From positions 29,116 to 93,115 of the forward strand of contig CAKSRS010000002.1 of NCBI GenBank assembly GCA_934487205.1: a stretch of DNA of 64,000 nt. Reading direction: 5' to 3'. The position numbers and the translations under genes are program-made. The DNA is from an uncultured Clostridia bacterium (lineage in GTDB: Bacteria; Bacillota; Clostridia; UBA1381). Shown here one piece after another: positions 2,983-15,445 of this stretch (its first letter is position 1; each line of letters opens with the position of its first letter). Under the pieces are notes generated by a model that saw only the letters and a program-made list of their open reading frames with translations, was not told the origin of the DNA and ran no database searches.

Positions 2983-3359
2983 GTCATATCCTCCTTAATA
3001 ATCCGAATTATAAATACATGTATTTGTCAATCAGTCTCGCGAAATGCGAAACTTATACATTTACATTTTAACATTAACAACATGTTCTGTAAATACAATA
3101 TCTTTACCAAAATGTGCAATATTTTTACTATTTTTTGATTATTAACTATTTTCCACCCATATAAAACAGCGAAAATATGTTAATATTTCAATATCATTAT
3201 CAAATAAAAAAATATAACTTGGTTATATTTACCAAATTAAATTGCACATTTTGGTAAAGATATTGTATTTACAAAGCAGTTTACACATGTTAGAATAAAC
3301 TCAGGTAAAATTATTGCAAAAATGCAAACAAAATATGAAGAAAGCGGAGTGAAAACAAT

Positions 3360-4706
3360 ATGATTAAAAATTTCTATACACCGAATGATTTTTCCGGAAG
3401 TGACAGCGAACGTATCCAAGCAGCAATATACGAAGCAAAAAAAACAGGCGCGGACAGGGTAGTTATACCGAAATACAACAGCGGAACGGATTCCATGAAA
3501 TGGGTTATCGATAAAACCATATTGCTGCCGTCAGACATAACAATTGTTCTTGATAATTGTTATATGGTTATGGCAGATGATACATATTGCCAAATGTTTG
3601 CAAACGAGAATCTGTTTGATGAACGCGGCAGGGACAAAAGCAATGAGCAAAAGAATATCAATATTATCGGCTGCGGCAATGCCGAAATATCCGGCGGAAA
3701 AGAGAATAAACTTAATGAATTCACTTCCAAAAAGGACGGAAACCCGCACGTTTCCGCCAATGTATTGATTTATCTTTATAACGTCCGTGACTTTAAAATA
3801 GAAGGATTTCGGATTTCGGATCAGCGTTGGTGGTCTATTTTGTTGCTGTACGCAAGATACGGCAGCGTAAAAAATATTGATTTCAAAATCAATTTCAGAC
3901 ACAGCTACGGCGTGTGGAGAAATCAGGACGGAATTGATTTGCGCAGCGGCTGCAACAATATAAGCATAGAAAATATCACCGGCGAAACCGGCGATGACAT
4001 GATAGCTTTGACAACTCTTATAAGCAAAAATCATTTTGAACATTCTTTGAAAATAGAGGGCAGAGATACCGATATTCACGACTGCACAATCCGTAATGTA
4101 AAAGGATTTTCAAATATGTGTGCAATCGTCAGATTGCTGAATCAGCATGGAAACAAAATATACAACATATCAATAAGCGATATCTTTGATGTCGGAACGC
4201 CGAAGCTCGAATCAAAGGTTCAAATGGTTTTAAGAATAGGCGAAGACTCATATTATGAATCATTTGCCGAACGCGCAAAACCCGATGAATTGTATAATAT
4301 TTCAATTAATAATATCTATTCAAAAGCGCTCAGCGCCATACATCTGGAATTGGCAGCAAAGAATTTGCATGCAAGCAATATATTTGTAACCGAAAAGGGA
4401 CATCATGCCGTAACATTGGGAAGATTTTATATGAATAATGTATTTATGTATATTCCGGAACGTTACGAGGAATATGAAAAAGAACGGCTTATTCCCGATA
4501 AGGATCTTAACAAAAAGACTACTTTGAAAAATGTACAAATCGAAAATATTTATTATTCCGCAAAGCCGGATTATTACAAACCCGCTGTATGCGCGGTATC
4601 AAACGCTGAGTTGATTAATGTAAGCGTAAAAAATATTTATGCGGAAGACGATATCAAAAAAGAGGAATATTTTAATATGGAAGAAAAAAATATTGTTCTT
4701 AATTAA
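3360..4706 (+). CDS. Right-handed beta-helix (pectin-lyase fold) glycoside hydrolase, GH28-like
   Basis: 448-aa ORF with repetitive beta-helix rungs. NQDGIDLRSG..GETGDDMIALT resembles the GH28 Asp cluster. It sits next to esterase genes. Confidence 0.65.
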   Translation: MIKNFYTPNDFSGSDSERIQAAIYEAKKTGADRVVIPKYNSGTDSMKWVIDKTILLPSDITIVLDNCYMVMADDTYCQMFANENLFDERGRDKSNEQKNINIIGCGNAEISGGKENKLNEFTSKKDGNPHVSANVLIYLYNVRDFKIEGFRISDQRWWSILLLYARYGSVKNIDFKINFRHSYGVWRNQDGIDLRSGCNNISIENITGETGDDMIALTTLISKNHFEHSLKIEGRDTDIHDCTIRNVKGFSNMCAIVRLLNQHGNKIYNISISDIFDVGTPKLESKVQMVLRIGEDSYYESFAERAKPDELYNISINNIYSKALSAIHLELAAKNLHASNIFVTEKGHHAVTLGRFYMNNVFMYIPERYEEYEKERLIPDKDLNKKTTLKNVQIENIYYSAKPDYYKPAVCAVSNAELINVSVKNIYAEDDIKKEEYFNMEEKNIVLN

Positions 4707-5193: not shown

Positions 5194-5937
5194 ATGGAAC
5201 TGAAAGACATATATTACACACGAAATAACATACCGGAGCAGTCGCTTGATATATTTTTACCGGATAATGCAAAGGGTGAAATACCTGTGTTTATATATTT
5301 TCACGGCGGCGGGCTGGAGTCCGGCAGAAAAGAAGAAATCCCGCCGCAGCATTTTGTTGAAAAGAATGTGGGAGTAGTATCAGTTAACTACCGTATGTAT
5401 CCCGATTACAGGTATCCGGATTTTTTATGGGACTGCGCTGCAAGCGTAAAATGGGTAACAGACAACATCGGGAACTATGCGAATGTCTCAAAAATATATG
5501 TAGGCGGTTCATCGGCAGGTGCATACATTGCAATGATGCTTTATTTTGACAGCAGATATTTTTCGACATACGGTGTTGATATTAACAAAATATCCGGATT
5601 TGTTTTCAATGCCGGTCAGCCGACGACGCATTATAACGTGCTTAGAGAACGCGGCATCGACTCAAGAAGGTGTATTATTGATGAGGCGGCTCCGCTGTTT
5701 CATATTGAGGAATACAAAAACCAACCTCCTGTGTTGATTTTTTGTGCGGATAATGATATGACTAACCGATATGAGCAAACGCTGCTGTTAATCGGAACAT
5801 TAAAGCATATGAATTATCCAGAAGAAAATATACAGTTTGAATATTTACGTGGTCACTGCCATTGTGATTACATCCAAGACGCAAAAGTATTTGCTGACAG
5901 GATTCTTGATTTTATAAACCGAAATAAGAGAAACTAA
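5194..5937 (+). CDS. Alpha/beta-hydrolase esterase (carbohydrate esterase/lipase-like)
   Basis: 247 aa. HGGG oxyanion motif (FHGGGLESG), GxSxG nucleophile elbow (GGSSAGA), and a GGAG RBS upstream. Confidence 0.8.
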   Translation: MELKDIYYTRNNIPEQSLDIFLPDNAKGEIPVFIYFHGGGLESGRKEEIPPQHFVEKNVGVVSVNYRMYPDYRYPDFLWDCAASVKWVTDNIGNYANVSKIYVGGSSAGAYIAMMLYFDSRYFSTYGVDINKISGFVFNAGQPTTHYNVLRERGIDSRRCIIDEAAPLFHIEEYKNQPPVLIFCADNDMTNRYEQTLLLIGTLKHMNYPEENIQFEYLRGHCHCDYIQDAKVFADRILDFINRNKRN

Positions 5938-6045
5938 GGATAAGGTTATTTGCTTTGAATATCGGAATTATCCGATGTTGCTGTAAAAGCACTGTTCAAA
6001 GTTTCATTTTGAAGTCGAAATAATACTGCCTGTGGAGGATAATAT

Positions 6046-6750
6046 ATGAAAATTTTATCAATAGGAAACAGTTTTTCTGAAGATGCACAACGGTATCTGC
6101 ACGCAATAGCGGAAGCCAACGGTAAAAAACTGACGTGTGCCAATCTGTATATCGGGGGCTGTTCATTAAGACAGCATTACATAAATCTATCAGACAACGA
6201 AAAAAACTACATTTTTCAATTTAACGGTGAGAACACGAATATTAAAATTTCAATCAAAGATGCGGTAAAAAGCAATGAATGGGATTACATAACGCTTCAG
6301 CAGGCAAGCCATGAGAGTTTTGATATCAATAACTATACACCATACCTCGAGAGCATAACAAAATGGTTGAGATTAAGATGTCCGAACACGAAAATATTGC
6401 TGCACCAGACATGGGCATATCCGCAAGACAGGGAAAGACTTTCGGAAGTTGGTTTTAAAACTACTGAGGAGATGTTTGCGGCAGTTAAAGACGCGTATAA
6501 TAAAGCCGAAAAATTGATAAATGCGGATAATATGATAAAAAGCGGCGACGCTATGCTTAAAGCATACAGGCTTAATCCTGACATTGTTTACCGCGATGCG
6601 ATTCATGCAAGCTACGGTTTTGGCAGATACCTCGTAGGCTGCGTTTGGTATAAGGCATTATTCAATCAAAAACCAAAAATTCAAATCAGCAGCTTTGATG
6701 AAAATATAACCGATGAGGGTTTAAAATTGATAGACAATATTATGCAGTAA
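6046..6750 (+). CDS. DUF4886-like SGNH-fold hydrolase
   Basis: 234 aa. The N-terminal KILSIGNSFSED motif is typical of DUF4886/SGNH-like proteins. GGAGG-type RBS (tggaggataatat ATG). Confidence 0.6.
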   Translation: MKILSIGNSFSEDAQRYLHAIAEANGKKLTCANLYIGGCSLRQHYINLSDNEKNYIFQFNGENTNIKISIKDAVKSNEWDYITLQQASHESFDINNYTPYLESITKWLRLRCPNTKILLHQTWAYPQDRERLSEVGFKTTEEMFAAVKDAYNKAEKLINADNMIKSGDAMLKAYRLNPDIVYRDAIHASYGFGRYLVGCVWYKALFNQKPKIQISSFDENITDEGLKLIDNIMQ

Positions 6751-6791
6751 ACCTGCGGTCGTTACAAACATAAACAGAGGTGAAGCTAATT

Positions 6792-6953
6792 ATGTATAAA
6801 CAAAAACTCGGATTTTCCATGTTTGGATCATATGAACACGGTATGTCAAGCGCCGTTAAGCTCATCAAAGACTGTAAGTTTGACGCGATCTCTCCCGTAT
6901 GGACAAATGATTACAACATAGAAGAAATTGCAAATGTACGAGTTACTTGGTAG
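6792..6953 (+). pseudogene. 5' stub (53 codons) of a gene truncated at the left boundary of repeat module copy A
   Basis: ATG 6792 with an AGAGGTG RBS. It reads MYKQKLGFSMFGSYEHGMSSAVKLIKDCKFDAISPVW.. and stops at the TAG formed inside GGTAGG, exactly where the repeat begins. Identity is uncertain (sugar-phosphate isomerase/TIM-barrel-like N-terminus). Confidence 0.4.
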
Positions 6954-6969
6954 GTGTAACACAATTTTT

Positions 6970-7057
6970 TTATACAAACCAAACAGGCTGCCCGATACGA
7001 GCAGCCTGTTTAGTCCACAAAAATTCCCATAGGTCTTTTTGAGATAATCAACAACAT
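6970..7057 (-). ncRNA. Candidate about 85-nt small RNA driven by P1 and ending at an intrinsic terminator (copy A)
   Basis: The perfect consensus promoter P1 lies 5-7 nt upstream. The transcript would end at hairpin 7011-6981 followed by UUUGGUUUGU. The sequence is identical in all three copies. Confidence 0.4.
6981..7011 (-). terminator. Intrinsic terminator hairpin of the P1 RNA (11-bp stem)
   Basis: AAACAGGCUGC/GCAGCCUGUUU stem followed by a U-rich tail on the minus strand. Copy B carries one substitution, which gives G.U on the minus-strand RNA but A-C on the plus strand. Confidence 0.6.
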
Positions 7058-7061
7058 TTTT

Positions 7062-7090
7062 ATTATACTACTATATGTTGTATTTGTCAA
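7062..7090 (-). promoter_or_regulatory. P1: perfect consensus sigma-A promoter (copy A)
   Basis: Minus strand TTGACA (7090-7085), 17-nt spacer, TATAAT (7067-7062). Conserved in copies B and C. Confidence 0.65.
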
Positions 7091-7197
7091 TAGTTTTTTA
7101 CAAATATATTTCATTATTTTCATTTTTGTTGCAACATAATTACTGCACGTTTGCACATGTGCGATTTGGGGCTTTTGTCTTTTTTCGTAAAAAGGCA

Positions 7198-7226
7198 TTG
7201 ACAAAACTGTAAAACAGGCGTATAAT
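7198..7226 (+). promoter_or_regulatory. P2: perfect consensus sigma-A promoter (copy A)
   Basis: TTGACA (7198-7203), 17-nt spacer, TATAAT (7221-7226). Both hexamers are conserved in copy B although the spacer carries 3 substitutions. Confidence 0.65.
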
Positions 7227-7232
7227 TACAAT

Positions 7233-7376
7233 AGAAAAAGGCAAAACCTCAAACGGTTATGCCAAGAAATCAGTTATTTATGCAATAACCGTCTTGCCAG
7301 AGGCGGTTATTGTGCGTTTATGGGAAATATTATCATTAAGATAATAAATACAAAAAGCGCTATGAGCAGCTTTTTC
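7233..7376 (+). ncRNA. Candidate about 145-nt structured RNA from P2, with an 18-nt hypervariable single-stranded segment (copy A)
   Basis: Hairpin HP1 is 7240-7263, the variable segment is 7265-7282, HP2 is 7283-7312, HP3 is 7328-7346, and a terminator-like hairpin plus U5 is at 7352-7375. Substitutions in HP1 and HP2 between copies are compensatory or wobble only for plus-strand RNA. Confidence 0.45.
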
Positions 7377-7520
7377 GCCATAAGTACAATGCTTACTTTT
7401 CATAAGCATACCCCCTTTCATAGACTCGGCATTTCTGCCTGTGAATATAAAAGTGTGGGCATAACCGCCGGTGTGAACACCGTTAAGAAATCTCGCCTTT
7501 AACATCGGATTACTCCGACA
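7350..7520 (-). ncRNA. Candidate about 170-nt structured RNA from P3 (copy A)
   Basis: Minus-strand hairpins carry GNRA loops. UCGGA-GUAA-UCCGA (7518-7505) has loop GCAA in copy B. GGCA-GAAA-UGCC is at 7439-7428. CGGUG-UUCA-CACCG is also present. It contains an AAAGGGGG Shine-Dalgarno 7 nt before AUG 7403. Confidence 0.4.
7352..7375. terminator. Candidate bidirectional terminator between the convergent P2 and P3 transcripts
   Basis: AAAAAGCGCUAUGAGCAGCUUUUU: an A-tract, a short GC hairpin and a U-tract. The same architecture reads on both strands. Confidence 0.35.
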
Positions 7521-7526
7521 AATCCT

Positions 7527-7555
7527 ATTATACACTATTATACGATGTTTTTCAA
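7527..7555 (-). promoter_or_regulatory. P3: near-consensus sigma-A promoter (copy A)
   Basis: Minus strand TTGAAA (7555-7550), 17-nt spacer, TATAAT (7532-7527). Conserved in copy B. Confidence 0.55.
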
Positions 7556-7633
7556 GAGATTTTGCAGAGAGCAATCAAATTGGTTGATAATGACTTATGC
7601 CCGCGGCGGACATTTTGACAGAATATGATAAAA

Positions 7634-8209
7634 TCACTTCGTTTCAATCAACAATTTTCTTGTCATTCCCGACCATGCTTTTGTAATTTCGTCGGTCAGA
7701 ATGGCATACTCAATACCTTTTTTAACACCTCTGTTATCCCATTCGTCCGTGAGTTCTTTTCGTACTTGAATAGCCTGCAAGCGTTGATTTATCCATTCTC
7801 TTGTATAGCCCTTTTTCAAATATGTCTCAAGAGCTCTGTCTATCGTAAGTTCCGGGTCTATCGTTTCGTCAATTCTCTCGGCACCGACTTGCGCAAGCCA
7901 TTGTTTGAACGGCTCGGCTTTGGGCGATGGAATTGACTGTATAATACGCAAAACGCCTTTTGTGTCCGACGCTTGAATTTTTCTTTTTTTTCCGTCGTGT
8001 GCAATCATTTCAACAGGGGTACAAATTGTACCCCACTTCAAATTCAGTTCAGGATCACGCTGACGCATTTTTTTGATATATTGTTTAACATCTTTGCTGT
8101 CGGTAAGTATTTCAACTATATCATAAATTGAAAAATACCATTCCTCGTGTTCGCTGTCCCACGCAGTACGGATTTTTTTATTTTCGAATATCTGTATATT
8201 ATTTTCCAT
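7634..8209 (-). CDS. Bro-N domain / DinD-like (DNA-damage-inducible protein D family) protein with a non-homologous 3' end
   Basis: 191 aa. Contains IRTAWDSEHEEWYFSIYDIVEILTDS (Bro-N) and KAEPFKQWLAQVG..ILTDEITKAWSGMT. Homology to the second dinD-like fragment (9030-9137) breaks at about 7672, just before module copy A. Confidence 0.7.
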   Translation of the reverse strand: MENNIQIFENKKIRTAWDSEHEEWYFSIYDIVEILTDSKDVKQYIKKMRQRDPELNLKWGTICTPVEMIAHDGKKRKIQASDTKGVLRIIQSIPSPKAEPFKQWLAQVGAERIDETIDPELTIDRALETYLKKGYTREWINQRLQAIQVRKELTDEWDNRGVKKGIEYAILTDEITKAWSGMTRKLLIETK

Positions 8210-8419
8210 TATGTATACCTCGTCAAAAAGGTTATTTCTAATATATCATACGTTCGTATAAAATACAAAAATATTGATTACTTTTTTTAACCACTTCCGC
8301 CCCGAACGACACCAATATAGCGTTGCCGGCTCGAAATTCGTTTTGGGCGGCTGTTTGGAAAATTATCCTTGCAATCAACAGTATGATGGTTATTTTAATC
8401 ACATAGTCGGTCTTTGGTT

Positions 8420-8977
8420 TTACATCATTTCCATTACAGACGCTATGTTATCGACCAAGAACTGCTGAGCGTCGCGGTCATACACAATAACCGAATATTC
8501 ACGGTCATCTCTTCTGCTGCGCCTTAACTCTGTTGTAATACCGATTTCATTGCCCATTTTGGTAGGTTTTTTTGTTATTTTTCCGTCGGGCATAGTTCCC
8601 ACACACAGCATTTTAACACTGATTAACCAATCTGTGAGATGTTTGTATGAAATCTTTTTCATATTCTTTTCCGCGTTGATTTCATTGATTCTCCGCGCAA
8701 TTTCGCTCATCGTTATAGACGTATCGCAAAAGCGAAACTTTTGAATTTCCTCAAAAGAAATATAAAAATTTTCCTTTGCCGTTTTCTTTTTATTAACCGT
8801 TCCGCCGTTTTCCGCCACCTGTCTTAAAACATCAGATATATAAAATAAACATCTTGAAATTTTAACATTGTTTATAATATCATTTTCCGGGATAATGGTA
8901 TTATCAAGCGGATTAATGCCGTTTGCCAGCTTATCTGTATATATTTTTGCTCTTTGTATCATCTCTAAATCCGTCAT
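8420..8977 (-). CDS. Hypothetical protein (185 aa)
   Basis: GAGGTG RBS and a clean ORF. No family was recognised. It is transcribed from the R1 outward promoter through a dinD fragment. Confidence 0.55.
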   Translation of the reverse strand: MTDLEMIQRAKIYTDKLANGINPLDNTIIPENDIINNVKISRCLFYISDVLRQVAENGGTVNKKKTAKENFYISFEEIQKFRFCDTSITMSEIARRINEINAEKNMKKISYKHLTDWLISVKMLCVGTMPDGKITKKPTKMGNEIGITTELRRSRRDDREYSVIVYDRDAQQFLVDNIASVMEMM

Positions 8978-9029
8978 TTGTACACCTCATCTTGTTTTCG
9001 TAAGTCAATCATTCCGGCACCGATTGCTA

Positions 9030-9137
9030 ATATTATCGCGCAAGGTTTCTTTCGTCAACCCTTTTAACGCTTTATACTTGCGTGTTGTCAATTCCCGACC
9101 GTGCTTTTGTACCTTCATCGGTCAGGATAGCATAATT
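9030..9137 (-). pseudogene. DinD-like C-terminal fragment (frameshifted)
   Basis: The reverse strand reads NYAILTDEGTKARSG, then in a shifted frame ELTTRKYKALKGLTKETLRDNISN. This is homologous to YAILTDEITKAWSGMT of 7634..8209 and continues past where that gene breaks off. Confidence 0.5.
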
Positions 9138-9163
9138 TTACCATGCATTTTTGTATATGTCAA
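9135..9163 (-). promoter_or_regulatory. Outward-facing promoter at the R1 end (copy B)
   Basis: Minus strand TTGACA (9163-9158), 17-nt spacer ending in TGG, TAAAAT (9140-9135). It reads into the dinD fragment and the 185-aa gene. Confidence 0.5.
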
Positions 9164-9408
9164 TAAAATAAATGATTTTCGCCATAGGCGTCTATAATAC
9201 CTTGCAACAATTTAAAATGTTTCATCTTCTATAATATGCCGCAAGCTTAAAAAATCAATTTATGATTTTACACCTTTGTCACCCGTAAGGAAACGGTAGG
9301 TAGGACACAATTTTCTTATACAAACCAAACAAGCTGCCCGAATACGAGCAGCCTGTTTAGTCCACAAAAATTCCCATAGGTCTTTTTGAGATAATCAACA
9401 ACATTTTT

Positions 9409-9437
9409 ATTATACTACTATATGTTGTATTTGTCAA
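9409..9437 (-). promoter_or_regulatory. P1 (copy B)
   Basis: TTGACA (9437-9432), 17 nt, TATAAT (9414-9409) on the minus strand. Confidence 0.6.
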
Positions 9438-9544
9438 TGGTTTTTTACAAATATATTTCATTATTTTCATTTTTGTTGCAACGCGATTACTGCATGTTTG
9501 CATATGAGCGATTTGTGGCTTTTGTCCTTTTTCGCAAAAAGGCA

Positions 9545-9573
9545 TTGACAAAACTATGAAACGGGCGTATAAT
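9545..9573 (+). promoter_or_regulatory. P2 (copy B)
   Basis: TTGACA (9545-9550), 17 nt, TATAAT (9568-9573). Confidence 0.6.
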
Positions 9574-9579
9574 TATAAT

Positions 9580-9724
9580 AGAAAAGGGCAAGACCTCAAA
9601 CGGTTATGCCACAACGCAAACTATATTAACAATAGCTGCCTGTGCCAGAGGCGGCTATTGTGCGTTTATGGGAAATATTATCATTAAGATAATAAATACA
9701 AAAAGCGCTATGAGCAGCTTTTTC
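9580..9724 (+). ncRNA. Candidate P2 RNA (copy B), with a different 18-nt variable segment
   Basis: HP1 is 9587-9610, the variable segment is 9612-9629 (CAACGCAAACTATATTAA versus AGAAATCAGTTATTTATG in copy A), and HP2 is 9630-9660. The remainder is identical to copy A. Confidence 0.45.
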
Positions 9725-9868
9725 GCCATAAGTACAATGCTTACTTTTCATAAGCATACCCCCTTTCATAGACTCGGCATTTCTGCCTGTGAATATAAAA
9801 GTGTGGGCATAACCGCCGGTGTGAACACCGTTAAGAAATCTCGCCTTTAACATCGGATTGCTCCGACA
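9698..9868 (-). ncRNA. Candidate P3 RNA (copy B)
   Basis: Same structure as copy A. The first tetraloop is GCAA instead of GUAA, so both are GNRA. Confidence 0.4.
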
Positions 9869-9874
9869 AATCCT

Positions 9875-9903
9875 ATTATACACCATTATACAATGTTTTT
9901 CAA
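9875..9903 (-). promoter_or_regulatory. P3 (copy B)
   Basis: TTGAAA (9903-9898), 17 nt, TATAAT (9880-9875) on the minus strand. Confidence 0.55.
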
Positions 9904-9992
9904 GAGATTTTGCAGCGATCAATCAAATTTGTCGATAATGACTTATGCCCGCGGCGGACATTTTGACAGGATAGCATAATTGCACCCGTTTT

Positions 9993-10304
9993 TTATAATA
10001 GCCATTTATAGTCTTGTCTGCAATCCACAACATAATCGACATAAACTGTGTTATCTTTAATTTGATAAATTAACAAATACCTTTTTGCCGCAAGTTTTTT
10101 TCTATATTTATTTGCAGGAATCTCATCACAGTTAAGCCACGGATAACTTTCAGGCATAAACTCCAAAGCTCTTATTTCGGTAATAATATCCTTATGCAGC
10201 TTTTTAGCAGTTTCAGGTGAAACATTCGCCAAAAATCTGACATGATTTACAAGCATTGATACAGCCTTGTCAGAAACTATAACATTATACTTCTTATCCG
10301 ACAT
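9993..10304 (-). CDS. Type II toxin, RelE/ParE superfamily
   Basis: 103 aa. It overlaps the upstream antitoxin by 11 nt. KYRKKLAAKRYLLIYQIKDNTVYVDYVVDCRQDY is typical of the ParE/RelE fold. Confidence 0.8.
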   Translation of the reverse strand: MSDKKYNVIVSDKAVSMLVNHVRFLANVSPETAKKLHKDIITEIRALEFMPESYPWLNCDEIPANKYRKKLAAKRYLLIYQIKDNTVYVDYVVDCRQDYKWLL

Positions 10305-10572
10305 GACTCACCCCGGACGCTGCATCGCCAAGCATTTTGTCAAGTTCATCAACCGAATACCCTTTTTTGCCCATGAACCTTTCTTCCTCTGCGGCAATAA
10401 GTTCTTCTCTTAATTTAAGCATCTTTTCCCGTCTTGAAAAGCTTTCAATATCCATAACTACCAAATCGCCCTCGCCGTTTTTCGTAAGATACACGGGTTC
10501 CCCTGTTTCTTTGCAGTAGTTGGAAATGTCATTATAATTGTTTCTGATTGCTGCCGACGGTCTGATATTCAT
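10294..10572 (-). CDS. Type II antitoxin, Phd/YefM family
   Basis: The start is taken at ATG 10572 (GAGGAG RBS). MNIRPSAAIRNNYNDISNYCKETGEPVYLTKNGEGDLVVMDIESF is the Phd/YefM N-domain. Confidence 0.8.
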   Translation of the reverse strand: MNIRPSAAIRNNYNDISNYCKETGEPVYLTKNGEGDLVVMDIESFSRREKMLKLREELIAAEEERFMGKKGYSVDELDKMLGDAASGVSHVG

Positions 10573-10627
10573 AAAATCAACTCCTCGCATAAATATTATA
10601 TATTTATTATACATTTTTGTTACTATA

Positions 10628-10656
10628 ATTATACCATTCATATCCGTATATGTCAA
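10628..10656 (-). promoter_or_regulatory. Outward-facing R1 promoter driving phd-relE (copy C)
   Basis: Minus strand TTGACA (10656-10651), 17-nt spacer ending in TGG, TATAAT (10633-10628). Confidence 0.55.
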
Positions 10657-10902
10657 TAATATAGTTGATTTTCGTTACAAGCGTCTATAATACCTTGCGG
10701 CAATTTAAAATGTTTCATCTTCTATAATATGCCGCAAGCTTAAAAAATCAATTTATGATTTTACACCTTTGTCCCCCGTAAGGAAACGGTAGGTAGGGCA
10801 CAATTTTTCTTATACAAACCAAACAGGCTGCCCGAATACGAGCAGCCTGTTTAGTCCACAAAAATTCCCATAGGTCTTTTTGAGATAATCAACAACATTT
10901 TT

Positions 10903-10931
10903 ATTATACTACTATATGTTGTATTTGTCAA
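10903..10931 (-). promoter_or_regulatory. P1 (copy C)
   Basis: TTGACA (10931-10926), 17 nt, TATAAT (10908-10903). The downstream small-RNA sequence and the terminator hairpin at 10821-10852 are intact. Confidence 0.6.
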
Positions 10932-11020
10932 TGGTTTTTTACAAATATATTTCATTATTTTCATTTTTGTTGCAATATAATTACCACGTGTTTGCATTTG
11001 TGCAGTTTGTGGCTTTTGTC

Positions 11021-11181
11021 ATCAGCTCTGGACATCAAGGGGTGCGGACATATTCTTGGACAGTTTATACTGATAATCCAAGACTATGTCTGTACTCAAC
11101 CGGACTCATATATCCGAGGGACTGTTTTATTCGTTCTACATTATACCAATCAATGTATGTATTGATTTCTTTGTGTATTGC
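11021..11181 (-). mobile_element. IS3-family remnant: terminal repeat plus the last about 38 codons of the transposase
   Basis: The reverse strand reads ..AIHKEINTYIDWYNVERIKQSLGYMSPVEYRHSLGLSV*, the conserved IS3 integrase C-terminus. The end sequence is GATGTCCAGAGCTGAT. Confidence 0.65.
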
Positions 11182-11185
11182 TAAC

Positions 11186-11443
11186 CTATTTACCGTCTCT
11201 TTCAAGTCGTACTTCTTTCACCAAAACCACAACATCATCAATGGTATTTAGTCCCAGCCTGTCTGCCTCGCCCGTAAAATCTTTTTGTATTTTTTCAAAA
11301 GCATACACCGCTGCGTTTTCAATACGTACCCGACCGTCCTGCTCAATAAAGCAAATCTTATCCCCTGTTTTTAGATTCAGCCGTTTTCTTATCGCAGTAA
11401 GTATCGTTACTCGTCCGCCCGGCATTACACATACCGTTTCCAT
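11186..11443 (-). CDS. AbrB/MazE/SpoVT-family DNA-binding protein (antitoxin-like)
   Basis: 85 aa. GGRVTILTAIRKRLNLKTGDKICFIEQDGRVRIE is a swapped-hairpin (looped-hinge helix) motif. Confidence 0.7.
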   Translation of the reverse strand: METVCVMPGGRVTILTAIRKRLNLKTGDKICFIEQDGRVRIENAAVYAFEKIQKDFTGEADRLGLNTIDDVVVLVKEVRLERDGK

Positions 11444-11512
11444 AATTGAACCACCTCACGCAAATTTTTTGGTAAAATATATTTCCACCGGGTGGAACTA
11501 CCACAAATATAT

Positions 11513-12916
11513 TTACTGCATAACCTGCCAATAGCCCTTCTTATCCGAGCCTATACGGCAGATAATATTCTTCCTTTTGAGAGATTTTATCAATTCACCG
11601 ACGGTTTTTCGGCTTACATCTAATTTTCCGGATAAATCATCATATGTGTAAGCCGGATCTTCCAATAAGAGTGCAATGAGCCGATTTTCAGTTTCAGTCA
11701 CCTTTTCAGTCACCCTACCAGTCACCTTTTCAGTCACCCTACCAGTCACCTTTTCAGTCACCCTACCAGTCACCTTTTCAGTCACCCTATCGGCTGATGT
11801 ACGCACAATTCTATCCTCGGGTGCCGAAAACTTTATCATTATATCCTGCGGGTGAACCGTAAATTCCGGTTGAAAAACGCCATCATTTTTGCATACAGTA
11901 CAGATTTTTTCTATTCCGCGTCCCCAGCTTTCAATAAAGCCAGCAAGATAAAATACGTAAGCTATGTTGGGGTTGAACGGCTGTGATGCATGTTTCTCAA
12001 AAAGATTTTCAACTGTCCAGTTTTCCGGCAAATGACCACAATTTGCAATATACAGTTTATCATTGTAAACGCTTATTTGAATTGGAATCCCCCTTGAATA
12101 ATCCTTATGACAAAGAGCATTCAAAAGTGCTTCACGCAAAGCTTCTTCCGGAACAAAATACCGTTCAATGCGTTGCATACCGACATAGTATATCTTCGCT
12201 TTCATATATTTTAAATAAATAAGCTCAACTATTTTATCAATTTGATCCAATATAGAGCCGTGAATTTCATCTTGATATACAAGGTCTGCATCGGTTTCAA
12301 AAAAACCTATTTTTACATAAGCGCCCAACTGCCATTTTTCCGGATCATTACTGAAAAGCAGCATAGCCGCATTTGTTAAATACCCGTCCTTTACCAAGTG
12401 AAGTTTCTCAAGCATAACAAATTTATCTTCCGATAAAACCGATTTGTTTATTCGTCCTTTGTTAACTGCCCATTGCTTAAATCGCTTAACGACCCCATCG
12501 TCGACATCGTCTGCTGTAAACGTAGGCAATGGCATACTGTCCCAGGTGACTCCCCGCCGTCTCATAATAAAGGTTTCCAGTTCAGGACCGGATAGCTTTT
12601 GATTTGTGCTACCGCTTCTGTAATAGTATGAGCCTTTGCAGGAGATAGCAATAGGGTAAGGTGGCACGTCTATTTCAACGTACTCACAATTGCCGTCGGT
12701 AAGAGAATTTATGTTAACAATAATCCCCATTGCATCACGAATTTTGTTCGGAAGATCTTCAAGCAGTTTTTTCGCATTTTTCACCCCTACAACTTCGCCG
12801 GAATCATTCATACCAATATACAGTTTTCCCCCCTGTGCATTTGCAAATCCACATATCCATGCAAGATAATCGTCTTTCCAGACTTCTTTCCACTCAACAT
12901 TTTGTTTTTCACGCAT
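11513..12916 (-). CDS. AlbA_2 (Schlafen-like divergent AAA) plus HATPase_c_4-type putative transcriptional regulator with a C-terminal wHTH
   Basis: 467 aa. NVEWKEVWKDDYLAWICGFANAQGGKLYIG is an AlbA_2 N-domain. ALREALLNALCHKDYS is the ATPase-like domain. It contains the in-frame repeat (RVTEKVTG)x4. Confidence 0.7.
   Translation of the reverse strand: MREKQNVEWKEVWKDDYLAWICGFANAQGGKLYIGMNDSGEVVGVKNAKKLLEDLPNKIRDAMGIIVNINSLTDGNCEYVEIDVPPYPIAISCKGSYYYRSGSTNQKLSGPELETFIMRRRGVTWDSMPLPTFTADDVDDGVVKRFKQWAVNKGRINKSVLSEDKFVMLEKLHLVKDGYLTNAAMLLFSNDPEKWQLGAYVKIGFFETDADLVYQDEIHGSILDQIDKIVELIYLKYMKAKIYYVGMQRIERYFVPEEALREALLNALCHKDYSRGIPIQISVYNDKLYIANCGHLPENWTVENLFEKHASQPFNPNIAYVFYLAGFIESWGRGIEKICTVCKNDGVFQPEFTVHPQDIMIKFSAPEDRIVRTSADRVTEKVTGRVTEKVTGRVTEKVTGRVTEKVTETENRLIALLLEDPAYTYDDLSGKLDVSRKTVGELIKSLKRKNIICRIGSDKKGYWQVMQ
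11695..11790. repeat. Perfect 24-bp tandem repeat x4 inside the AlbA_2-type gene
   Basis: CAGTCACCTTTTCAGTCACCCTAC at 11695, 11719, 11743 and 11767 (the last unit ends in T). It encodes RVTEKVTG units. Confidence 0.9.
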
Positions 12917-13318
12917 TTTATCATCTCCGGCTCATTTTTCTATAGTATACCACAAACTGTTAAAAAAATCAATTCGTGATATTTGTATGTTGAATATTTG
13001 ATTTCCCAATCCTGAAGATTCTCATTATGAGTTCCTCGAAATAGGATATCTCAGTTTTGTAATATCTCTTATGCGTGATGCATCTCAAATTTCAAACTGT
13101 CCTCATATTCCTCCAACTCCCCCTATCACAGAACGTCCCCTAACCTTATCTCCTCTTTATCTTGGTTTCCCCCCGTTCCTGCCCGCGGTCCGTGCATGAT
13201 AAGACCGCGGGCGGTTCCTGTGCTTACAAAGTACGGTCAAATTCGGCTTTTGCATTTGCCGTCCCCCGTAAGCACATTAGTGCGACAAATTTGCAAATCG
13301 CCCGATTTTGCAAACCCC

Positions 13319-13345
13319 GCAAGCCGCATTACTGCTTGCTTTTTT
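13319..13345 (+). terminator. Intrinsic terminator-like hairpin in a non-coding tract
   Basis: GCAAGC-cgcattact-GCTTGC followed by TTTTTT. Confidence 0.45.
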
Positions 13346-13349
13346 GGGT

Positions 13350-13430
13350 GTTCCTTACGGGGGAAAGTGCGTGAATTTTTCACCCCTGTAGCCAACATTC
13401 ATTTTACACCTTTGTCACCCGTAAGGAAAC
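13350..13430. repeat. Imperfect about 80-bp palindrome made from two inverted copies of the R1-end motif
   Basis: GTTCCTTACGGGGGAAAGTGCGTGAA (13350-13375) against the reverse complement of TTTTACACCTTTGTCACCCGTAAGGAAAC (13402-13430). Confidence 0.6.
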
Positions 13431-13452
13431 GGTAGTATGACACAATTTTTTT
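13401..13452. repeat. Fourth, partial copy of the R1/R2 junction sequence
   Basis: ATTTTACACCTTTGTCACCCGTAAGGAAACGGTAG..GACACAATTTTT matches 9265-9315 and 10758-10810, then diverges. Confidence 0.75.
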
Positions 13453-13466
13453 GCGTATTTTTGTCA

Positions 13467-13489
13467 GCTCTGGACATGATGTCCAGAGC
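13467..13489. repeat. Abutted IS3-type terminal repeats (perfect 11-bp palindrome arms)
   Basis: GCTCTGGACAT-G-ATGTCCAGAGC. It is the same end sequence as the IS3 remnant at 11021-11040. Confidence 0.6.
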
Positions 13490-13496
13490 CCGCCAT

Positions 13497-13916
13497 TTAA
13501 GGTTTTAGCCTTTGCCGCATTAACTCAATCGCCATATGGTGATAGCAGTAATAGTTTGCGTAACTTGTAATTTTTACCTTTTCCCTCGTCTTTTCATAAC
13601 GCTCATTTGCCTTGTAAACTTTATCACAAAAATATGTATAATACAGAACCCAATAATATATCTCACCCGCTTCCTCATTTTCGCGTATATCTCGTACCGC
13701 TTTGTTTATCAGCTTTACCACTTTTATCGTGAGCTTACGTTCATTGCCGGTATAATTGATGTCATTGATGCCGGTTTCTTCTGCAAATTCTTCCGGTGAG
13801 CACAATATTTCCGGCTCATATCCAACCTCTTTTTCTACTTTTTGCAATTCTCTTGCAAGCTTCATATCGCGGTAGTTGTTTAGCAACAATACTACCCGTT
13901 TTTGTTCTTCTGTCAA
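13497..13916 (-). CDS. ArpU/sigma-70 region-4-like small transcriptional regulator (paralog 2)
   Basis: The start is taken at TTG 13916 (GGAGGAGG RBS, 7-nt spacing), directly after the upstream stop. The YYWVLYYTYF motif is shared with the neighbouring gene. Confidence 0.55.
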   Translation of the reverse strand: MTEEQKRVVLLLNNYRDMKLARELQKVEKEVGYEPEILCSPEEFAEETGINDINYTGNERKLTIKVVKLINKAVRDIRENEEAGEIYYWVLYYTYFCDKVYKANERYEKTREKVKITSYANYYCYHHMAIELMRQRLKP

Positions 13917-13918
13917 TT

Positions 13919-14449
13919 TTATACCTCCTCCGGCTTTACAAGCGTTTTCGTTATTTCCATACACTCTTTTGAGGTGTATCCCCACAGCATTGTGCTTAAT
14001 AGATTTATTGCCTGTCTGCGGTAGTTAAAGTACGTCTGCCACGATACATAGTACTGTTTTTGCGCAATCTTGTCCACAATCTGGTCGACGCTTTCTAAAG
14101 GCTTTTCGCACAGGTATGTATAATACAAAACCCAGTACATCATCTCGCCTTTTTGATGTTTTCTGCGGATAATTTCGACCGCACGGTCAATAAGCTGCAG
14201 CATCTTACGGTTACGTTCCATTGTTCGAACCTGTTCCTCAATTTTTGTATTCATCAAATCCGCTCCGGCAGCGTATGACATATCCAAAAATTCTGTCATT
14301 TTACAGCCCGTTTCAAATTCAAAATTGACCTCCGCCTGCATCGCCGATACCTCAATGCTCCACACGACATCGCGGTATTTTTTGAGCAGCAGCTCCGTGT
14401 TGTGATACAAAAATTCGTTGTTTTTCTCGATTGTGCTTTTCTTTTCCAT
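13919..14449 (-). CDS. ArpU/sigma-70 region-4-like small transcriptional regulator (paralog 1)
   Basis: 176 aa. It carries the MYWVLYYTYL motif. Its start overlaps the RepA_N stop by 1 nt. Confidence 0.55.
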   Translation of the reverse strand: MEKKSTIEKNNEFLYHNTELLLKKYRDVVWSIEVSAMQAEVNFEFETGCKMTEFLDMSYAAGADLMNTKIEEQVRTMERNRKMLQLIDRAVEIIRRKHQKGEMMYWVLYYTYLCEKPLESVDQIVDKIAQKQYYVSWQTYFNYRRQAINLLSTMLWGYTSKECMEITKTLVKPEEV

Positions 14450-15387
14450 TAGTTATCGTCCTTTCTGAAATAATTCTTGTTAAATTTTGATTGATAATAG
14501 TGATTCATTGTGTCCGGGGCGTTATACAGCATCGTCAAAATATAGCTTTTGTAATTGCGAATTTTTGTGCTGTTCTCGTCCAGACAGTCGATTACATACA
14601 CGATGTGCATATAATCGAGTTTTAAGAGCTTTCTTTTTACCACCTCCTTTGGCACTTGCATACTGTTGACATTGATTTTATCGTCAAAGCTGCATATTGC
14701 GTCGACTATGATATTTACAAAGCCGTCGATTTTCTCGGCAGCGTATTGCTGAATTAAGATGTCATACTCGATATTGGTTCTGATTACGTCCCTGTATTCC
14801 TCTCTTTCCCTCTCTAAGGCGGCAAATGAAATGCGTGAGGAAGAAGATATATCAGTTTTATTCAAATCTGTATTATTAATATCAGTATTATTAGAGTCGG
14901 ATATGCCGAAGTCAAGAGTTCGGTTTTTCAGAAGTGCAGACTTCGGTTTTTCAGAAGTCAAGACTTCGGCATTTTCGCCTGACTTCGGTTTTTCAGAAGT
15001 CTGGACTTCGGCTGAGTTATCAACACTTTGGATTGAATTTTGATTGTCCGTAAAATTTAAAACATAAATAATAACCGGCTTACCTAAGCCCTGCTTTTTG
15101 CGTTCTATCAAAATCCCGTCCAATTCTTTTAATAACTTCACACCTTTGTCCTTGCCGATTGATAAATAATCCGTGATTTCCTCAAGTGTGAAATATATGT
15201 AAACTCGGTTATCATCATCGACCCAGTTATTGCGAACCGACAAACTCATTCTGTCGAGCATTAAACCGTACAAAACTTTTGCCTCCACTGAAATTCCGGC
15301 ATACCGGCTGTCGGTAAACAATAATTTCGGTATTCGATAAAATGCGAACTGTTCCGATTCACTTTTGTAAAAAAAATTATTTTTCAT
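14449..15387 (-). CDS. RepA_N-family plasmid replication initiator
   Basis: The start is taken at ATG 15387 (GAGGAGG RBS). FYRIPKLLFTDSRYAGISVEAKVLYGLMLDRMSLS..YIYFTLEEI is the RepA_N N-terminal domain. The central linker is repetitive. Confidence 0.8.
   Translation of the reverse strand: MKNNFFYKSESEQFAFYRIPKLLFTDSRYAGISVEAKVLYGLMLDRMSLSVRNNWVDDDNRVYIYFTLEEITDYLSIGKDKGVKLLKELDGILIERKKQGLGKPVIIYVLNFTDNQNSIQSVDNSAEVQTSEKPKSGENAEVLTSEKPKSALLKNRTLDFGISDSNNTDINNTDLNKTDISSSSRISFAALEREREEYRDVIRTNIEYDILIQQYAAEKIDGFVNIIVDAICSFDDKINVNSMQVPKEVVKRKLLKLDYMHIVYVIDCLDENSTKIRNYKSYILTMLYNAPDTMNHYYQSKFNKNYFRKDDN
14908..15016. repeat. Five about 23-bp direct repeats inside repA (candidate iterons / internal origin)
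   Basis: The (A/T/G)GACTTCGG cores recur at 14916, 14939, 14962, 14981 and 15004, with GTTTTTCAGAAGT following three of them. Confidence 0.6.
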
Positions 15388-15413
15388 TGCCCATTCCTCC
15401 TCATTTTTGCACG

Positions 15414-15445
15414 AAAAAAGCAGACACACTTAATTGCATGTCTGC
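15414..15445 (-). terminator. Intrinsic terminator downstream of the cotJC 3' segment
   Basis: Minus strand GCAGACA-ugcaauuaagug-UGUCUGC followed by UUUUUU. Confidence 0.6.

Follow-up and report, generated by a model that had tools for sequence, protein, structure and literature searches.

Layout of the locus

We analyzed a 64-kb stretch of DNA (64,000 nucleotides, hereafter the window) from contig CAKSRS010000002.1 of an uncultured Clostridia bacterium, centering on a non-coding block of about 0.85 kb that lies between a fragment of a Bro-N/DinD-like gene on its left and a phd-parE toxin-antitoxin (TA) operon on its right, and that is bounded at both ends by the same 15-mer. The region belongs to a decayed integrative or mobilizable element from a human-gut Clostridia/Oscillospiraceae organism, with RepA_N, integrase and transposase remnants in the wider neighborhood, and the same arrangement recurs at 99.9% identity in several gut metagenome assemblies. 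The original prediction regarded the block as a mobile promoter cassette that had entered a dinD-like gene with duplication of a short target. Loci fetched for comparison are denoted below by an L and a number.

Two exact copies of the 15-mer, CAGGATAGCATAATT on the plus strand, occupy positions 9123-9137 and 9967-9981, 844 bp apart, and each falls exactly at a homology breakpoint. In the minus orientation the 15-mer reads AATTATGCTATCCTG, and N-Y-A-I-L is encoded on this strand at both copies, in agreement with the original reading. No further match was detected in the window even with up to 2 mismatches; the chance expectation is about 0.11 matches, and at least two copies were encountered in 0/100 shuffled sequences. 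No direct repeat longer than the 15-mer spans the ends of the block, and its length was equalled in 0/300 shuffles, so that the repeat is indeed exact and non-random as had been claimed.

Self-comparison of the window revealed that the block belongs to a set of three related copies, all on the minus strand, of which it constitutes copy B. Positions 9295-9979 of copy B are 92.8% identical to copy A (6949-7631), and positions 9132-9526 are 92.7% identical to copy C (10625-11020). In addition, a 52-nt piece at 13401-13452 matches 9265-9317, and the stretch 7660-7708, inside a 191-aa gene, is 86% identical to 9085-9134. These matches divide the supposed module into at least three pieces, which we term R1, R2 and R2x. 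In copy B, R1 (9132-9526) comprises the promoter P1 at its left end, a spacer including the segment shared with 13401-13452, a terminator hairpin (9327-9358) and a second promoter, P2. R2 (about 9520-9914) resembles a type I TA cassette held between the convergent promoters P4 and P3, and R2x (9915-9966, with an extension to about 9981) is the upstream extension of R2 with the remnant of a terminator hairpin, homologous to 7567-7662 of copy A and to the loci L030 and L057. Copy A (6949-7662) consists of a partial R1 (6949-7179), which matches 9295-9526 of copy B and has lost the left 160 nt, an R2 (7173-7566, with its open reading frame (ORF) at 7307-7381) and an R2x (7567-7662) that adjoins the truncated Bro-N gene and retains homology with L057 up to 7662. 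Copy C is an R1 (10625-11020) located upstream of phd-parE; it has no R2 and is cut at 11020 by a region with an IS3-family transposase remnant (11065-11205). The order along the minus strand is accordingly R1(C), phd, parE; R2x, R2(B), R1(B); Bro-N fragment, 185-aa gene, truncated Bro-N gene; R2x, R2(A), partial R1(A).

The treatment of R1 and R2 as a single module did not survive comparison with other loci, as the two occur apart and R2 alone is present in at least 7 other contexts. The homology of R2 elsewhere ends at about 9520/9567 on one side and at 9887-9914 on the other, and never takes in R1 or the 15-mer. In the contig L006, likewise, the R2 of copy A meets a different flank where R1 would border on R2. 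Two short metagenome contigs present further arrangements: L007 carries an R1 that passes from copy C to copy B without the intervening phd-parE-R2(B), while L011 carries an R2 that passes from copy A to copy B and connects R1(B) and the Bro-N fragment with the truncated Bro-N gene. We considered them as independent ancestral or empty-site arrangements and rejected this, because both are clean hybrids that switch within stretches identical between the copies. They are either products of homologous recombination (with L007 as a deletion and L011 as a circle or tandem copy of 2.35 kb) or assembly chimeras formed through the identical repeat cores.

The broken Bro-N gene

The protein encoded at 7634-8209 (minus strand, 191 aa) is a truncated Bro-N/DinD-like protein that matches the Pfam Bro-N domain (PF02498) with E = 1e-11 and 45.6 bits against a cutoff of 25.6. 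Its intact relatives are 288 aa long, share 99% protein identity with it over the first ~184 residues (96% of the length of the window protein) and are located in a mobilizable element with genes for a relaxase, MobC and DUF6050. The DNA at 8280-7660 is 91.8% identical to the intact locus L043, the homology ending at about 7660 (aa ~184-186), and the stop codon and last residues of the 191-aa protein are supplied by R2x. A separate stretch, 9134-9027 on the minus strand, is 89.8% identical to L043 8502-8608 and represents a gene fragment covering approximately aa 169-211 that is frameshifted by a 1-nt insertion. Given these two separate homologies, the window contains a C-terminally truncated gene and a detached internal fragment of it, and the proposed disruption of a dinD-like gene is thereby borne out. 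The intact 288-aa homolog has only a weak partial match to the DinD equivalog NF008573 (27.6 bits vs a cutoff of 242), which indicates a Bro-N protein with a DinD-like C-terminal half and not DinD itself.

The left flank of the 15-mer carries the Bro-N/DinD-like frame (YAILTDEGTKARSG...), homologous to both the 7634-8209 gene and the 288-aa relatives. At the corresponding place the intact gene reads GAG TAT GCT ATC CTG ACA (GAGTATGCTATCCTGAC in L043; GAGTATGCTATCCTGACA as a contiguous stretch). Twelve of the 15 bases of the repeat thus equal Bro-N codons 169-172, Y-A-I-L (TATGCTATCCTG), and its leading AAT is not Bro-N sequence, the intact gene having GAGTAT there. The 12-mer CAGGATAGCATA occurs once in each intact Bro-N gene (L043-L048), and the 15-mer in none of them. 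The view of the repeat as a piece of Bro-N coding sequence consequently holds at the left copy, where the flank runs on in frame, and fails at the right copy, which borders the 3' flank of parE.

The truncated gene (7634-8209) and L043 8001-8550 share 99% protein identity and only ~92% DNA identity, a pattern that suggests strong purifying selection on this Bro-N gene family; the 191-aa stump may still be functional or may have been truncated only recently. Between the stump and the fragment lies an ORF of 185 aa (8420-8977, minus strand), downstream of P1(B) and of the Bro-N fragment, that had no match in Pfam or NCBIfam.

P1 is the promoter of the phd-parE operon

The genes phd (10297-10572, minus strand, 92 aa) and parE (9993-10304, minus strand, 103 aa) have an overlap reported as 11 nt, and their products matched the Pfam families PhdYeFM_antitox (PF02604, 35.1 bits) and ParE_toxin (PF05016, 32.3 bits) above cutoff; TIGR01552 also has a match in this operon. 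A promoter scan recovered both of the promoter-like sites that had been claimed for the end of R1, namely P1(C) at 10656->10628 (TTGACA-17-TATAAT with TG) and P1(B) at 9163->9135 (TTGACA-17-TAAAAT with an upstream TG), both on the minus strand. The near-consensus P1(B) points out of the block to the left, as proposed, toward the Bro-N fragment and the 185-aa gene.

The further claim that this promoter is a portable one is contradicted by homologs of the operon with 92-95% identical antitoxins in two unrelated contexts, a conjugation-type cluster (L049) and a phage lysis region (L053). Directly upstream of phd in both we found TTGACATA(T/C)ACAAAAAT(A/G)(C/T)ATGGTATAATTATA..., after which come a similar leader and GGAG-ATG. 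This promoter and leader are those of copy C, and the promoter is the same as that of copy B up to AATTAT. As the same promoter precedes phd in these unrelated loci, P1 is the native phd-parE promoter; copy C hence represents the normal arrangement, and copy B a duplicate devoid of its operon. The leader of copy B is broken three bases past the -10 element and there gives way to the Bro-N fragment, the two parts meeting at a TAT that they have in common. We considered an operator palindrome in P1(C) as a sign that C is the original, and set it aside since L049 and L053 resemble the spacer of B and not that of C.

Anatomy of the two joints

The left 15-mer (9123-9137) is the joint of the P1 promoter/leader of R1 with the Bro-N fragment. 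In the minus orientation AATTAT derives from R1 and TATGCTATCCTG from Bro-N, with TAT common to both; the native R1/P1 sequence at this place, seen in copy C, L049 and L053, is GGTATAATTATAGTAAC. The right 15-mer (9967-9981) is the joint of the 3' flank of parE, comprising the 5' arm of its terminator, with R2x. After the parE stop codon copy B reads, with slashes at the junctions, TAA-AAAACGGGTGCAATTA/TGCTATCCTG/TCAAAATG (also given as AAACGGGTGCAATTA/TGCTATCCTG/TCAAAATG), a run that continues as AAAACGGGTGCAATTA-TGCTATCCTG-TCAAAATGTCC. In L049 parE is followed by AAACGGGAGCAATTA/AGTG..., that is AAACGGGAGCAATTA-AGTGTAACAGCTTAGTTGCTCTTTTTT, which forms the parE terminator, and from this it follows that the first five bases of the right 15-mer belong to the terminator arm. 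From TCAAAATG onward copy B is identical to copy A and homologous to L030 and L057, which are R2 loci with unrelated neighbors.

The counterpart of the right 15-mer in copy A is CAGAATATGATAAAA (7619-7633), identical at 10/15 positions. The right 15-mer consequently lies inside the longer A/B repeat (6949-7631 and 9295-9979), one of the findings by which the original prediction was to be overturned. The native R2x reading at this position is TATCATATTCTG, with TTTTATCATATTCTG in copy A, TTTTATCATA in L030 and TTTTATCATATCATATCCTATCATA, a longer tract, in L057; the position is thus a naturally variable TATCATA-type tract. We also considered R2x as a relic of Bro-N and rejected this, the gene upstream of R2x being unrelated to Bro-N in L057 and part of an AbiE locus in L030.

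The first 5-6 bases of the 15-mer (AATTA/T in the minus orientation) are thus native to the left arm of each copy and do not come from Bro-N. Taken together, the comparisons indicate that both 15-mers are chimeric joints, the left one of P1 leader and Bro-N, and the right one of parE flank and R2x with a Bro-N-type dodecamer in place of the native tract.

Origin of the direct repeat

We consider it probable that the repeat marks two recombination joints in a mosaic, produced by microhomology-guided duplication or recombination within a decaying mobile element, and that it is not a target-site duplication made by a transposase. In our reconstruction of the order of events and the mechanism, a single joint would have come first, with the parE flank fused to the Bro-N fragment as GCAATTA/TGCTATCCTGACC, and the block R2x-R2-R1 would then have been copied between the two halves of this joint. 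This could have happened in one template-switching event, or in two steps, with an unequal exchange duplicating R2x-R2-R1-phd-parE and a later deletion between two AATTAT repeats removing the second operon. The short homologies used would have been AATTAT, which the P1 leader also has, and TAT..TAT.CTG, which the R2x tract also has. By either route both new joints would inherit the identical 15 bases.

Several points weigh against this history. Neither the 60 loci fetched nor IMG/VR yielded the empty joint that it predicts between the parE flank and the Bro-N fragment, GCAATTATGCTATCCTGACC, and R1 was not traced outside this lineage, pattern scans of genomes and metagenomes having returned chance matches only. 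Moreover, in the circularly permuted unit of 2347 bp the block lies between the 5' part of Bro-N (aa 1-186) and the 3' fragment (from aa 169), and L011 physically links these parts through the block, such that an original insertion into the Bro-N gene with a duplicated overlap of ~50 bp may have taken place. Finally, several multi-step paths yield the same product.

The insertion originally envisaged would make R1+R2 a non-autonomous promoter cassette similar to a miniature inverted-repeat transposable element (MITE), transposed into the Bro-N gene with a 12-15-bp target-site duplication, the upstream part of Bro-N having later been replaced. An exact 15-bp direct repeat at both ends, 12 bp of which are Bro-N codons with intact genes known elsewhere, is what such an event would leave; in copy A the same block adjoins the 5' part of Bro-N, and L011 joins this 5' part, the block and the Bro-N fragment. 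The last of these may be an assembly chimera, as its switch from A-type to B-type sequence lies inside a stretch identical in the two copies. The block itself has none of the hallmarks of a transposon: an inverted-repeat search of 9100-10000 found no terminal inverted repeats linking 9138-9170 with 9930-9966, there is no transposase in the block, where the ORFs are only fragments or spurious, and the block is a composite of parts that spread independently, its ends being the phd-parE promoter and the region upstream of R2. Its right flank is parE DNA rather than Bro-N, and the AAT of the 15-mer has no counterpart in Bro-N. The other copies also speak against the cassette. Flanking repeats at copies A and C and at L023, L024 and L036 are at most 8 bp, which is chance level, and those of L030 (10 bp) and L040 (11 bp) are AT-rich and marginal, being reached in 16/300 and 7/300 shuffles; among the loci examined only copy B has a significant flanking repeat, and the expected duplication is therefore lacking at A, C and five other R2 loci. 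No Bro-N gene neighbors any of the other R2 loci, contrary to a preference for dinD-like targets; they lie instead next to pyrG/ispG, to ABC permease and resolvase remnants, to AbiE and an acyl-CoA ligase-type gene, to helix-turn-helix (HTH) and HicAB genes, to Ppx and an ABC exporter, to YpsA and, in one case, to a gene of unknown kind. Of the original idea of insertion or site-specific recombination with duplication, the broken Bro-N gene stands; with flanking duplications and a dinD preference absent elsewhere and the right 15-mer within a longer repeat, the mobile-element model is largely refuted by its own criteria, and we regard it as improbable.

Site-specific recombination fares still worse in our estimate. 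Direct repeats of ~15 bp are typical for the cores of attachment (att) sites, and the size of the repeat and a decayed mobile element with integrase, RepA_N and insertion sequence (IS) remnants nearby would suit an attL/attR core of an integrase with the 844-bp block as a cis-mobilizable remnant. The intact target gene, however, holds only 12/15 bases, no further core copies exist in the window at 2 mismatches, recombinase genes lie neither in nor beside the block (the integrase fragments are several kb away), and native promoter and terminator sequences pass without a break into the ends of the block. The joint that a circle or tandem form should have, TAAAATTATGCTATCCTGTCAA, was not found in the fetched loci or IMG/VR. 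Short-patch gene conversion or templated mutation is a more serious contender, though we judge it unlikely. It posits two independent joints about 12/15 alike (AATTAT..TAT.CTG), the left one having been copied into R2x by a local template switch; the unconverted right joint would then have read AATTATCATATTCTG, or GTGCAATTATCATATTCTGTCAAAATG in its longer form. In its favor, copies A and B are identical for >30 nt directly downstream of the right 15-mer and yet differ at 5/15 positions within it, the bases peculiar to B being those found in the left copy; the R2x tract also varies naturally among A, L030 and L057. Against it, two independent joints must already have been very similar, there is no flanking homology to guide conversion, and one of the differences (T->C) is also present in L057 and may be ordinary polymorphism. 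A chance repeat, for which one might invoke the AT-rich intergenic DNA full of promoter-like sequence, has a negligible probability, since the shuffles exclude it statistically and both copies lie exactly on homology breakpoints.

Microhomology-guided recombination accordingly turns the flagged repeat into an ordinary recombination scar of a decaying mobile element re-assorted at short homologies. Such re-assortment leaves a strong TA promoter aimed at foreign genes, here a pseudogene fragment and the 185-aa gene. The case also cautions that direct repeats at the flanks and an outward promoter do not suffice to identify a mobile element.

R2, a putative type I toxin-antitoxin cassette

R2 is the most interesting content of the interval, being compact, conserved, unannotated and present in many uncultured gut Clostridia. 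When a spurious 75-aa ORF placed on R2 by a gene caller was used as a query, it retrieved 29 diverged protein-database clusters. At the DNA level R2 is 79-92% identical in the other contexts (L023, L024-29, L030-35, L036-39, L040-42, L057/58 and L059), and in these loci the homology unit is bounded at both ends by the convergent promoters. P4, the predicted promoter of the putative toxin mRNA (9903->9875, minus strand), reads TTGAAA-17-(TG)TATAAT, or TTGAAA-17-TGTATAAT, and its hexamers and 17-nt spacing are kept in 6/7 aligned copies. P3 (9545->9573, plus strand) is a perfect TTGACA-17-TATAAT with hexamers and spacing invariant in 7/7 copies; the spacer sequences of both promoters vary. In L030 (5833-5880) the -35 and -10 elements of P4 are pushed apart by a tandem duplication of 10 bp (GGTGTATAAC/GGTGTATAAT), which breaks the 17-nt spacing and possibly silences this promoter.

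From P3 an antisense small RNA (sRNA) of ~95 nt is predicted (P3 and RNA together 9545-9675), with a fold z of -4.6, ending at a hairpin (9630-9660) that overlaps the 3' end of the toxin ORF. This hairpin is bidirectional, being common to both transcripts, and displays compensatory changes between copies. The predicted toxin mRNA (9576-9868, minus strand) was folded from the alignment; its single-sequence fold has -104.9 kcal/mol and z = -6.3. It begins with a 5' stem-loop, in place of which L023 has a different hairpin, and its leader of ~125 nt is nearly invariant. The Shine-Dalgarno (SD) sequence, GGGGG, lies ~30 nt upstream of the AUG and is followed by an 8-bp hairpin (9737-9766), AUGCUUAU-GAAAA-GUAAGCAU, by which the distance from the SD to the AUG would shrink to no more than ~8 nt; in the predicted fold the GGGG of the SD is paired with UCCC inside the ORF. 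The 5' end of the leader is further predicted to pair with the 3' tail over 25 bp, and this tail is complementary to the P3 RNA in the 5' domain of the latter.

Within this mRNA an ORF for a hydrophobic peptide of 24 aa, a putative membrane toxin, MAKKLLIALFVFIILMIIFPINAQ (9729->9655, minus strand), stays open in 7 copies and keeps its start and stop in all of them. Elsewhere the peptide reads MAKKLLAAIFVVIILMILYPIKAQ, MAKKLITALLIVFIFMILFPINAQ or MAKKLIVSVITIIVVLIVCSVKVQ. Variable sites among the 7 copies fall at codon positions 1/2/3 in the numbers 14/4/15, and synonymous codon differences amount to 80 in the hydrophobic frame vs 28 and 6 in the other two. The hydrophobic core has a mean Kyte-Doolittle hydropathy of 3.2-3.6. 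By these measures the peptide is small (<60 aa), hydrophobic, predicted to be transmembrane and under purifying selection. The frame-1 ORF preferred by gene finders (MLMKSKHCTYG..., 41-98 aa) was rejected as the real product, as its conservation is confined to the SD/hairpin region and synonymous differences in it are few; gene callers in effect mis-annotate R2 as a spurious ORF of 41-86 aa in the wrong frame.

On account of the promoters, the codon pattern, the folds of the mRNA and sRNA and the compensatory changes in the hairpin, R2 looks like a type I TA locus, and its function is put forward as putative. General features of type I systems in Clostridia and other Firmicutes have been reviewed, and a charged C-terminal region of the toxin is typical of the Firmicutes systems (PMC6563280). 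It counts against our assignment that the charges of the R2 peptide are N-terminal (MAKK), with an uncharged C-terminus, FPINAQ, and that covariation support for the long-range helices is weak, the latter because the sequences are nearly invariant. R2 had no match in Rfam (E<=1), Pfam or NCBIfam; a scan of 5500-14500 against Rfam at E<=1 drew in a meaningless miRNA match only. The R2 core was not found in IMG/VR, and blastn of the module against phage and plasmid collections gave no match.

The frame of the hydrophobic ORF relative to the SD-proximal AUG differs between copies. In L057 (709-906) and L058 (651-848), which derive from two independent samples, GAAAAG stands in place of GAAAAAG after the internal AUG (compare 9729-9766 of the window). 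The variant joins the frame of the SD-proximal AUG to the hydrophobic ORF and so specifies a 33-aa product, MLMKSKHCTYGEKLLIALFVFIILMIIFPINAQ; every other R2 copy has the hydrophobic ORF in the +1 frame with respect to this AUG. Which start codon is used may be toggled by the A-run. A separate observation concerns L023, which at 261-304 has a lone 44-nt copy of the P3 -10 element and the 5' domain of the antisense RNA; this copy matches 9568-9611 at 88.6% identity and lies ~5.7 kb away from the complete R2 that the contig also carries.

We tentatively advance a joint proposal, which we hold to be plausible rather than probable as a whole, that R2 founds an undescribed family of type I TA systems widespread in human-gut Oscillospiraceae/Clostridia, with at least 29 clusters and at least 8 contexts. 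As components of the same proposal, the hairpin would bridge the distant SD to the start codon of the 24-aa membrane peptide, the antisense RNA would compete for the 25-bp closure of the mRNA ends, the short A-run would toggle the ORF between its own AUG and the SD-proximal AUG as in the L057 variant, and clusters of such cassettes would serve as recombination substrates that reshuffle mobile-element cargo and give rise to joints like the 15-mer. If R2 is confirmed, it would constitute a new family of small toxins and an example of control by both ends of one mRNA in Gram-positive anaerobes.

Remaining features of R1 and of the window

The second promoter of R1, P2 (9437->9409, minus strand), is a perfect TTGACA-17-TATAAT from which a transcript of ~90 nt is predicted (P2 and transcript together 9315-9437), ending at the hairpin 9358->9327 with a fold z of -5.6. 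This core shows 100% identity among the three copies of R1 (A, 6969-7090; B, 9315-9437; C, 10809-10931), and its flanks ~92%. The transcript had no Rfam match, and at its start there is a possible leaderless ORF of 15 codons, MLLIISKRPMGIFVD. We rejected it as a trans-acting partner of the R2 toxin mRNA, the duplex energy being no better than that of shuffled sequences (z = -0.2 to -0.6). Exact-pattern scans with the R1 core across genome, metagenome and viral collections returned 20-mer matches in unrelated taxa that were chance by a blast check, and R1 is on this ground not traceable outside the lineage. Both the R1 of copy C and the short R1 piece at 13401-13452 are followed by GTCA(T)CAGCTCTGGACAT (within 11006-11035 and 13448-13489), which at 13467-13489 belongs to a 23-nt palindrome; this may be the end of the IS3-family element whose remnant lies at 11065-11205.

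Three other repeats were encountered in the window. The gene for a Schlafen/AlbA_2-type regulator of 467 aa (11513-12916, minus strand) contains about nine 12-nt tandem units (24-nt super-unit) at 11671-11813 that encode (VTEKVTGR)n between the HATPase_c_4 and HTH domains, and the 459-aa version on a related contig (L005/L015) implies that the repeat number varies. The RepA_N-type gene at 14449-15429 has four copies of a ~23-nt repeat (GACTTCGGTTTTTCAGAAGTC...) at 14893-15012, which could be iteron-like. A 56-nt inverted repeat (3065-3120 and 3241-3296; 84% complementary, 120 nt apart) lies just upstream of a 448-aa ORF (3360-4706) and overlaps its start region.

Comparison with known systems

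The block resembles the target-site duplications of IS elements and MITEs, and promoter-carrying elements such as Correia elements and IS with outward promoters, in having a direct repeat at both ends of ~0.85 kb of non-coding DNA and a strong promoter at one end that reads outward into a neighboring gene. It differs from them in that it lacks inverted ends and a transposase family, shows no duplication at its other copies and is composite, with the outward promoter being the ordinary promoter of the adjacent phd-parE. There is a closer likeness to microhomology-mediated duplication or insertion and to deletion between short repeats in bacteria: the junctions lie at homologies of 3-12 nt, both flanks of the inserted block share the same short sequence, transposon ends are absent, and apparent homologous-recombination hybrids between the repeats are present in other assemblies (L007 and L011). 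Unlike in those events, the rearrangement here is old (the copies have diverged by ~7%) and several orders of events fit. The operon itself conforms to type II TA operons of the Phd/YefM-ParE kind in its overlapping genes, its Pfam matches and its conserved promoter and leader, which are also found at homologous operons elsewhere; the only unusual point is the duplication of its promoter region without the operon in copy B.

For R2 the nearest parallels are the Firmicutes type I loci with convergent, 3'-overlapping transcripts, such as txpA/RatA, bsrG/SR4 and yonT/SR6 of B. subtilis and CD2517.1/RCd8 of C. difficile (PMC6563280, PMC2887945). R2 shares with these a very small ORF for a hydrophobic peptide, a structured leader with a predicted paired ribosome-binding site, and a strong convergent promoter with a predicted short antisense RNA over the 3' end of the ORF; its copies likewise lie in mobile-element remnants, beside HicAB, AbiE and Phd/ParE. 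It departs from them in its lack of sequence similarity to known toxin and antitoxin families in Pfam, NCBIfam and Rfam, in the length of the peptide (only 24 aa) with its N-terminal charges, and in an SD ~30 nt from the AUG with a conserved 8-bp hairpin in between. In its predicted 25-bp pairing between the 5' and 3' ends, R2 is more like the hok mRNA than the Bacillus systems.

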